From NCBI GenBank assembly GCA_963827475.1, contig CAWHAZ010000005.1, forward strand, positions 244,259-308,258: DNA of 64,000 nt. The letters are read 5' to 3'. A program made the position numbers. This DNA comes from an uncultured Chloroflexia bacterium. GTDB lineage: Bacteria; Chloroflexota; Limnocylindria; QHBO01. Positions 9,001 to 12,000 of the stretch are shown here, piece after piece. The stretch's first letter is position 1, and every line of letters starts with the position of its first letter.

Positions 9001-12000
9001 GAAGTCGAACGACGCGTCGGGGTGCGGGATCGCGGCGGCGGAGCCCTGCACGATGCGCTCCTCGCCGCCGACGCCGAGCATCGCGAGGCGGTGCTGCATC
9101 ATGCGGACCGGCCCCGCGGCGATGTCCAGCCCGTGATAGACCGCGCCGCGCTTGACGATCTCCTCGCCGAGCGTGCCGTATCCGAGGCCGATTTCGAGGA
9201 CGCGGGCTCCGGCGAGCGGGAATCGGTCGACGTACCCGAGCAGGTACGGGTAGAAGTCGAAGTAGGCGCGATCGAATGCGTCCAGCGTCGCTCGGTCGTG
9301 ACCGACCAGGCCCAGGCTCCGAGCGAACGTCGTCCCACAGAGCTCGTCCCAGAACTCCTGGTTGCGGTGATCGACGTGGATGTGGTGGTGACCATCAATG
9401 CCGCCTCGCGGCTCCCCATACTACGCGCCGCGGGCCGCCGGCCGACAACGTGTGGACAACCCCGCGGGGATTGCGAAATGTCGTGGAAAAGGGGCTTGCG
9501 CAGCCGGTCGCTGATCCCGCATCCTGCGCACGTCCCGAAGGGGCAGCTGGCCGGACCCGAGATGACATCAACGGTCGCCGCGGTTCCTTCGGGACATTTC
9601 CATGCCCCGCGCTGTCGCCAGCCGGAGCGCCGCCGGACTAGGCGACGGGAGTCGCGCTCCGGTCGGCCATGATCGAGCCCCGCAGCGCGTCCGCGCGCGG
9701 GGTGTGCTCCCAGGGCAGGTCGAGGTCCGGGCGTCCGAAGTGGCCGTAGGCCGCGGTCGGTCGGTAGAGCGGCCGGCGCAGGGTCAGGTCGGTGATGATG
9801 CTCCCCGGGCGCAGGTCGAAGTGCTCGCGGATCAGCTGTTCGATGGTCGCGTCGGACACGATCCCGGTCCCGAAGGTCTCGGCGTGGATCGCGAGCGGAT
9901 GGGCGACCCCGATCGCGTAGGCCAGCTGGATCTCGCACCGACGGGCGAGGCCGGCGGCCACGATGTTCTTGGCCACGAAGCGGGCCATGTACGACCCGGA
10001 CCGGTCCACCTTGGTCGGGTCCTTGCCCGAGAAGCTGCCGCCGCCATGGCGCGCCATCCCGCCGTAGGTGTCGACGATGATCTTGCGGCCGGACAGGCCC
10101 GAGTCACCCTGCGGCCCGCCGATCACGAACCGCCCGGTGGGATTGACGTAGACCTTCGTCTCCGCGTCGAGCAGGTCGGCGGGGATGGCGGCCTCGATGA
10201 CCTCGGCCCGGATGCCATCGGTCAGCTCGCGGGTGTCCACGTCCGGCTCGTGCTGGGCGCTGACCACCACGGTGTGCACCCGCGCGGGGCGCCCGTCCTC
10301 GTCGTACTCGACCGTCACCTGGCTCTTGCCATCGGGCCGCAGGAACGGGAGCGAGCGATCCCGGCGGGCTTCGGCCAGCCGTCGGGCGACGGCATGGGCG
10401 AGCTGGATCGGCATCGGCATCAGCTCCGGCGTCTCATCGGTCGCATAGCCGAACATCATTCCCTGGTCGCCGGCGCCCAGCTCGTCCGGCTCCAGGCCCA
10501 TCTTCGACTCCAGCGCGTGGTCCACGCCGCGGCTGATGTCGGGGCTCTGCTCCTTGATGGCCGAGATCGTGCCGCAGGTCTCCCAGTCGAACCCGAGATG
10601 GCTCGAGTCGTAGCCGATCTCGCGCACCGTGCGACGAACCACCGACTGGACGTCGACGTAGTGGCTGGTCGTCATCTCGCCCAGGACGAAGACCAGTCCG
10701 GTCGTGGCCGCCACTTCGATCGCGCACCGCGCGTCGGGGTCGTTGGCGATGACGTCGTCGAGGATCGCGTCGGCGATCTGGTCACAGAGCTTGTCCGGAT
10801 GTCCCTCGGTCACGGACTCGGAGGTGAACAGGGTGCGGTTCGCGGCGCGCTCCACGGGGCGTGATCCTCCCGGCCTGATGGGCTAAGCCACAGGAGTCTA
10901 GCGCCCGTGGCCAACGGTTGGGCGCCGAGCGCAGACGTCTCGTCTAGACTGCACGCCCGTATGCAGATCGTCCCGCAGCTGATCGGCTACCCCCGGATCG
11001 GGCCCAACCGCGAGCTCAAGTGGGCGCTGGAGCGCAACTGGGCCGGGCGGTCGGACCGCGCCGCCCTCGATGCCCAGGTTGCCGAGCTGCGCGCGGCCCA
11101 CCTCGCCGAGCAGCGCGAGCTGACCGGCACGGCAGTGGACGACTTCTTCCTGTACGACGAGGCGCTGGAGACCGGGCTCATGCTGGGCATCGCGCCCGAG
11201 GAGCTCGCCAGCCAGCTTGCCACCGACCCGTTCGCCGTGCTCACGATCCTCTCCCGCGGCAGCGCTGACCGCGAGGCGTGGGAGATGACGAAGTGGTTCG
11301 ACACCAACTACCACATGGTCGTGCCCGAGGCGGACCGGCCGGTGACCGAGCTGCGCCCCCTGCCCTGGCGCGAGCCGACCGGCGATGGCGCGATCTGGCC
11401 CATCCTCGGCCCGTACTCCCTTGCCCGCCTGGCGAAGGTCGCCCCCGGGCTCGATCGCGCCGAGCTGGCGGCCTCGGCAGGGGCGGCCACCTGGCGCTGG
11501 GTACGCGCGCAGGCCGCACGCGACCCCGGATTCCGTCTCCAGATCGACGAGCCGTGCCTTGGCCTGGTCCTGACCGATGACGACCGCCGCCTCCGGGATG
11601 CGGCCTACGCCGACGCCGCGCTCGGGTTGACCGAGACGCCGATCGTGACTGTCCAGTTCGGCGAGGCCGATTCGGACAGCATCGAGATGCTCGGCGGACT
11701 CGGGTTCGCGGTCCAGGTGCCGCTGGCCTCGCTGCCGCAGCTGGCCGGGACCACGGCCTGGTCATCGCTGCCCGAGCTGGTCGTGTCGGTGATGGATGGT
11801 CGGAGCGTGTGGGCCGACCACTACGCGCCGGTCCAGCAGGCGCTGGCCGCCCTCGGCGACGAGGCGCGCACGGTCCGGATCGTGCCCAGCACCAGCCTGA
11901 TCTTCCTCCCGTACACGGTGGAGGGCGAGGACCTGCCCGCCGGCTTCCAGTTCGCCCGGGAGAAGGCGCGGACCCTCGCCGCCTGGGGCGCGACCCTGCC

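Follow-up and report, generated by a model that had tools for sequence, protein, structure and literature searches.

Mirrored TAGACT hexamers in the metK-metE spacer of a high-GC Chloroflexota bacterium as putative -10 elements of two divergent promoters

The -10 consensus of Streptomyces promoters is TAGAPuT. A TANNNT hexamer about 12 nt upstream of the start codon is the accepted sign that a gene of a high-GC bacterium is leaderless (PMC3160421), and for pgpA, a leaderless gene of E. coli, TAgAcT has been cited as a -10 match (PMC4681348). In Corynebacterium glutamicum, McbR, a TetR-type repressor of sulfur and methionine genes, has the consensus TAGAC-N6-GTCTA (PMC2723105). We found no promoter study in the literature for the uncultured Chloroflexota lineage to which the DNA described here belongs.

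We analysed a stretch of 64,000 nt (the window) with a GC content of 69%, in which metK and metE diverge from a short common spacer. A preliminary description had pointed to several short words in this spacer, i.e., AGTCTAG and CTAGACT, the arms of a GC-rich inverted repeat, two palindromes and a 9-mer; these strings and their coordinates were all correct on re-reading, and the 105-bp gap between the metK and metE starts was verified (Table 1). The names metK, metE and trxB agree with NCBIfam and that of ispG with the Pfam family GcpE. We also verified that the 9-mer CTAGACTGC recurs before trxB, in the ispG-trxB spacer. An exact look-up of the MetK protein of the window returned no identical protein on record. 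A metF-like gene lies downstream of metE.

Table 1. Genes and sequence features of the metK-metE and ispG-trxB regions and of the remaining TAGACT site, in window positions
Feature	Position	Strand	Remarks
metK	9638-10855	minus	NCBIfam; GTG is the sole possible start
metK-metE divergent spacer	10856-10960		105 bp
metK 5' leader (inferred)	10856-10888	minus	~33 nt
Putative metK -10 hexamer TAGACT	10895-10900	minus	39 nt before GTG at 10855
AGTCTAG	10895-10901
GCGCCC-N13-GGGCGC	10901-10925		between the two hexamers
Inverted repeat arms GCGCCC and GGGCGC	10901-10906 and 10920-10925
8-bp palindrome AGACGTCT	10933-10940
8-bp palindrome GTCTAGAC	10942-10949
CTAGACT	10944-10950
9-mer CTAGACTGC	10944-10952		ends 8 nt before metE ATG
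Putative metE -10 hexamer TAGACT	10945-10950	plus	10 nt before ATG 10961
Putative metE discriminator and very short leader GCACGCCCGT	10951-10960	plus
metE	10961-13141		NCBIfam; ATG 10961 agrees with orthologue N-termini
DUF2520 protein gene	34277-34972	minus	unrelated in function to metK, metE and trxB
TAGACT before DUF2520 gene	34979-34984	minus	6 nt before GTG; leaderless layout
ispG	62406-63647	minus	Pfam GcpE
9-mer CTAGACTGC, second copy	63765-63773		ends 11 nt before trxB ATG
Putative proximal trxB -10 hexamer TAGACT	63766-63771	plus	13 nt before ATG 63785
trxB	ATG at 63785		NCBIfam

The nearest MetE relative (91% identity) is encoded on a 1.08-Mb contig of a metagenome-assembled genome (MAG). 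MetE matches at 66-69% identity are labelled Chloroflexota or Candidatus Limnocylindria, which is a class within Chloroflexota, and the labels of IspG relatives at 92-96% identity read Chloroflexota or 'Candidatus'. Among the matches listed in the contig scan, MetK relatives share at most 66% identity and belong to other phyla, and they were of no use for footprinting. The nearest MetE and IspG relatives place the host in Chloroflexota and not in Actinobacteria. The comparison with McbR of Corynebacterium thus crosses phyla and is a remote analogy.

The word common to the metK, metE and trxB spacers is TAGACT, which matches TANNNT. We consider it highly probable, as far as sequence comparison can tell, that the metK-metE spacer consists of two independent, back-to-back promoters of the sigma-70 type, each with TAGACT as its -10 hexamer. 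TAGACT would be a TANNNT variant that ranks among the commonest -10 hexamers of this high-GC Chloroflexota lineage. The inverted repeat formed by AGTCTAG and CTAGACT would then be two -10 hexamers facing opposite ways, GTCTAGAC would be the metE hexamer preceded by a chance GTC, and CTAGACTGC before trxB would belong to a third such promoter, whose flanking bases are similar. Transcription by RNA polymerase and the primary sigma factor is expected to begin about 7 nt after each hexamer. The metK mRNA would accordingly have a leader of about 33 nt with a normal Shine-Dalgarno sequence, and the metE and trxB mRNAs would have leaders of a few nucleotides, so that they would be effectively leaderless and translated much like leaderless mRNAs.

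In the window, TAGACT is not over-represented (four copies observed vs 4.5 expected). All four copies, however, stand 6-39 nt before a start codon on the strand of the respective gene, i.e., they share T1, A2 and T6 with TANNNT and are upstream and gene-oriented. The non-randomness of TAGACT in the window hence lies in its placement, not in its count. The word is nearly missing from coding DNA. This can be attributed to codon bias, because one frame of TAGACT contains TAG and the other frames require rare A/T-ending codons. Owing to this scarcity, the expectation from dinucleotide shuffles exaggerates the surprise of a repeat in non-coding DNA.

We extended the analysis to a set of related DNA, which comprised 80 metagenome loci with MetE relatives and the loci of the closest relatives. 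The window together with loci L081-L161 amounted to 560 kb, and these loci are skewed to metE and metK. They contain 69 TAGACT sites, 66 of which have a gene start downstream by a lenient test, leaving three sites without one. TAGACT precedes metE orthologues at a distance of 6-47 nt in about 45 loci, and eight sites precede metK; the hexamer upstream of metK is TAGACT or TACACT in L087, L090, L091, L130, L148 and L159-L165. The other 18 sites are mostly found 6-7 nt before the starts of unrelated genes, among them serA-like, lepA and TetR-like genes and genes for membrane proteins.

The distances between any TANNNT and a candidate start codon showed a sharp peak, with 24 cases at 6 nt and 12 at 7 nt over a background of mostly 0-4 cases, and TAGACT was the commonest hexamer at 6 nt. 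As a control we used all 180 letter permutations of TAGACT. With sites flagged as metE or metK removed, though several metE promoters slipped through, TAGACT was located 5-8 nt before a start codon in 6 of 33 cases, whereas the remaining 179 permutations together were so placed in 38 of 10,556. Of these, only TAGCAT and TACGAT stood out, and both are TANNNT words as well. From the distance peak and the permutation control, we conclude that the hexamer is found 6-7 nt from putatively leaderless starts at functionally unrelated genes. Such a pattern has been published for the -10 boxes of leaderless genes in high-GC bacteria (PMC3160421).

Between the window and L161, four-fold degenerate sites are 69-72% identical and the spacer is about 92% identical; the closest genomes alone hence cannot tell a promoter from an operator. 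We therefore compared seven metK-metE spacers with MetE identities of 72-91%, i.e., those of the window, L159 and L161-L165, where L162-L165 had been added as relatives at 89%, 83%, 81% and 72% MetE identity. The metE-side hexamer TAGACT is invariant in all seven. The metK-side hexamer is kept as AGTCTA, except in L165, where AGTGTA gives TACACT on the gene strand. Moreover, the 8 nt that directly follow the metE hexamer, GCACGCCC, are conserved along with it, and CTAGACTGCACG(C/G)C is kept in all seven spacers, even with the much longer leader of L163 and L165. Only the two hexamers and these approximately 8 nt are conserved across the seven spacers. The gap from hexamer to hexamer measures 44 nt in the window and 24-25 nt in L163 and L165. 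A gap that varies in this way is a misfit for one dimeric operator and a fit for two independent promoter elements. At the metE, metK, trxB and ispG promoters alike, the hexamer is kept while the sequence around it changes and the gene start lies nearer or farther away.

One observation points the other way. The 29 nt at 10931-10959 are identical among the three closest genomes, in which the four-fold degenerate sites are 69-72% identical. On these alignments, the constraint on this segment exceeds what the hexamer alone would explain, and it counts against the plain-promoter reading.

A consensus promoter and terminator scan gave no hits, for promoters because the scan requires a -35 element. 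We found no TTGACA-like -35 element 16-18 bp upstream, and the sequence logo is flat upstream of TAGACT. A missing -35 element is usual in high-GC bacteria, and its absence here is hence compatible with membership in the sigma-70 type. The sites resemble the sigma-70 TANNNT -10 elements of Actinobacteria and Deinococcus-Thermus (PMC3160421) in T1, A2 and T6, in their orientation towards the gene and in the weak or absent -35 element. They also resemble this class in that TAGACT is found here 6-7 nt before many unrelated starts and in that the hexamer is kept while its flanks drift. In contrast to leaderless TANNNT promoters, the distance from the hexamer to the ATG is 10 nt for metE and 13 nt for trxB, which exceeds the 6-7 nt seen at true leaderless genes, and the leaders are hence predicted to be very short but not absent. 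This stretch is too short for a Shine-Dalgarno sequence at both genes. For metK, a Shine-Dalgarno sequence GGGAGGA is present at 10865-10871, 9 nt before the GTG. The preliminary description had offered, as an alternative to an operator, that TAGACT may be a -10 box of the TANNNT form, from which very short leaders would follow. The position of the hexamers, the distance peak and the footprint favour this assignment, which remains a putative one.

In the metK-metE and trxB spacers, Rfam searches at gathering or permissive thresholds yielded no credible RNA family, so that neither a SAM nor a cobalamin riboswitch was found before metE or metK, and the metK leader RNA folds no better than shuffled sequences (z = 0.63). 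As a positive control, a SAM-I riboswitch was detected before metE in the more distant relatives L118, L120, L121 and L128. In these distant relatives, a SAM-I (S-box) riboswitch thus precedes the same gene metE, whereas it is absent here, where the leaders would be at most 10 nt long for metE and about 33 nt for metK.

With two -10 boxes on opposite strands of one short spacer, the locus is like other divergent bacterial promoters. We see nothing unusual in it, and the distance between the boxes ranges from 24 to 44 nt among relatives. What remains is normal promoter anatomy, and the finding as such matters little. As a practical by-product, TAGACT and other TANNNT hexamers may serve as marks of promoters in this uncultured high-GC Chloroflexota lineage, in which leaderless genes and genes with very short leaders appear to be numerous. 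Such marks could help MAG annotation to place start codons and the limits of operons.

The preliminary description had suggested that the half-sites in the spacer form an operator for a regulator related to McbR. In this case, AGACGTCT or GTCTAGAC, or both, would be bound by a dimeric repressor, McbR-like or other, making metE and metK responsive to methionine or SAM. AGACGTCT is indeed a perfect 8-bp palindrome between the metE -10 hexamer and the expected -35 position and shows no change between the window, L159 and L161 despite about 30% divergence at neutral sites; moreover, some other control is plausible in a clade that has no riboswitch before metE or metK. However, the frequencies of both palindromes in the window are not above chance. 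GTCTAGAC occurs once (0.31 expected), which was matched by 25 of 100 shuffles, and AGACGTCT occurs twice (0.75 expected), which was matched by 18 of 100. The second AGACGTCT, at 56316-56323, overlaps AGGAGA, the ribosome-binding site of an unrelated lipoprotein gene, and the window holds no other Met or Cys genes before which a dyad might recur. Already in L162, at 89% MetE identity, and likewise in L163, L164 and L165, AGACGTCT is swapped for unrelated sequence, with GAGGAGTCTGCT, GCAGCGCCTCGT, TCGAGTGCTCGA and GGAGACCGCTCGA in its place. GTCTAGAC is composed of GTC and the first five bases of the metE -10 hexamer, and only the window, L159, L161 and L164 have the GTC needed to complete it. 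The palindromes are thus not conserved in orthologous promoters. As for McbR itself, the likeness is that the 5-mers TAGAC and GTCTA adjoin metK, which is an McbR target in Corynebacterium. Nevertheless, their order and spacing are wrong here, they do not form the 16-bp dyad, and none is conserved as a dyad. TAGAC-N6-GTCTA has no match anywhere in the window at up to one mismatch; at two mismatches there are 11 hits vs 7.4 expected, with a single hit in the spacer at 10885-10900. No TetR_N domain (Pfam) was found in the about 48 window ORFs scanned, a set that does not cover ORFs in several gaps between gene calls. Also, the phylum of the host is not that of Corynebacterium. With the dyad absent, the palindromes unconserved and the host not actinobacterial, an operator for an McbR-related regulator is unsupported, and the seven-spacer footprint appears to have largely refuted operator palindromes of any kind; we regard them as highly improbable. 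Another dyad, TTGCG-N6-CGCAA, is not a recurring operator in the window either, where it has one exact copy only. The central GCGCCC-N13-GGGCGC repeat could be an operator or structural element common to both promoters, since it sits where the two -35 regions would overlap, and the window, L159, L161 and L162 retain its arms while the inner bases vary, already between the window, L159 and L161. Yet L163 and L165, which carry both hexamers, lack the segment altogether, and short GC-rich inverted repeats are common at 69% GC, with 8 in 116 nt. A shared role for it is exceedingly improbable; as a whole, this repeat is unconserved and probably without function. Mirrored -10 boxes in divergent spacers, as we propose them here, call for caution, as they are easily misread as operators.

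The recurrence of the 9-mer before trxB raises a further alternative. The longer word CTAGACTGC(A/G) might be a signal shared by metE and trxB that couples both genes via a thiol/redox factor or a specialised sigma factor. MetE is sensitive to oxidation, which would give such a coupling some sense. CTAGACTGC is exact in both promoters, with two copies in the window vs 0.12 expected, and it is conserved in the metE as well as in the trxB orthologue family. We analysed trxB in five ispG loci of relatives (L166-L170) and in the window. CTAGACT is located 9-14 nt before the trxB ATG in all six and is kept in L168 and L169 though trxB is not adjacent to ispG there. Between the two putative trxB promoters, a stem-loop showed no compensatory changes. 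Against a coupling signal, the flanking bases of the 9-mer are themselves frequent: C at -1, G at +1 and C at +2 are found at 59%, 36% and 27% of 59 non-redundant TAGACT sites, and chance alone would hence give any two TAGACT promoters the three bases in common in about 6% of cases. In addition, the metK and DUF2520 promoters carry TAGACTC instead, trxB of L170 carries TAGACTCA, and serA-like, lepA and TetR-like genes have TAGACT promoters as well. A coupling signal of this kind is therefore very unlikely in our view, and we take the two copies of the 9-mer to reflect promoters of one class and not a regulon motif. It would be similarly a long shot that the conserved 14-mer CTAGACTGCACGCC of metE promoters and the similar CTAGACTGC(G/A) of trxB promoters represent more than a -10 box with its discriminator and are bound by a factor through which Limnocylindria would regulate methionine synthesis and thiol-redox genes together. 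With neither a riboswitch nor a recognisable operator in this clade, the conserved 8 nt after the metE hexamer would be the only remaining candidate for extra information.

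Upstream of the TAGACT box of trxB lies a tandem repeat, ACTTGCGT-ACTTGCGC, followed by AACTACTGATAC (63705–63736). An alignment of six trxB loci, i.e., that of the window and the related loci L166–L170, found this stretch to be nearly invariant. From its sequence, the stretch reads as a putative second, distal trxB promoter, with a gap of 17 nt between the TTGCGT and TACGCT hexamers (see table). In L170, a 30-nt deletion joins this putative promoter to the TAGACT box. Between the two putative promoters (63743–63766), a conserved GGTTCC is followed by a GC-rich stem-loop. The stem had no compensatory base changes among five sequences, hence RNA structure at this site is not supported.

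On the other side of the spacer, ispG has a TANNNT box of its own, TACACT. The sequence around it, GAGTGTACCGATG, was kept in L166–L169 and not in L170. The longer ispG start at 63695, called by the ORF finder, is probably wrong.

Features near the ispG/trxB and metE genes (window positions).
Feature	Position	Strand	Remark
278-aa gene directly 3′ of metE	13146–13982	+	position conserved in relatives
TACACT, TANNNT box of ispG	63660–63665	−	12 nt before ATG at 63647
TTGCGT, −35 of putative distal trxB promoter	63708–63713		
TACGCT, −10 of putative distal trxB promoter	63731–63736		TACNNT present in all relatives aligned

Leaders of metE differed among relatives. A SAM-I riboswitch was found about 80–170 nt upstream of metE in L118, L120, L121 and L128, more distant relatives with 59–63% identity, and is absent from metE of the window's clade. 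We therefore conclude that metE control was swapped or lost between lineages. Moreover, a subgroup of metE loci (L095, L098, L106, L110, L136, L139 and similar) carries a conserved 29-nt leader after TAGACT, with the sequence (T/C)(T/G)(G/C)GACTTCATTCCACAGAGGACC, and uses TTG as the metE start codon. Upstream of the hexamer, a T at a distance of five bases, as in TGCCnTAGACT, was present at 33 of the 59 non-redundant TAGACT sites, a set rich in metE/metK loci. In the window, CACGCCC precedes the start codons of both metK (minus strand, 10857–10863) and metE (10952–10958) by 1–2 nt. Since the metK-side copy is broken up in the close relatives L159 and L161 (CACTGCCCC), this pairing is probably due to chance.

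The gene following metE had no match in a Pfam search. Its sole match, a weak one from NCBIfam, was with the methylenetetrahydrofolate-reductase portion of a bifunctional enzyme, and the gene may encode a divergent MetF. About 9 kb of the window (13969–23104) are missing from the syntenic relative L161. This segment, probably a variable glycan island, has a lower third-position GC. Its polysaccharide and cell-envelope genes encode a UDP-glucose dehydrogenase, an epimerase, a GT2 glycosyltransferase and an LPG_synthase_TM protein.

The window holds further candidate leaderless genes, at 24251 (−), 27528 (+), 35504 (−) and 51095 (+), preceded at 6–8 nt by the TANNNT hexamers TATAGT, TAGGCT, TACCAT and TAGAAT, respectively.
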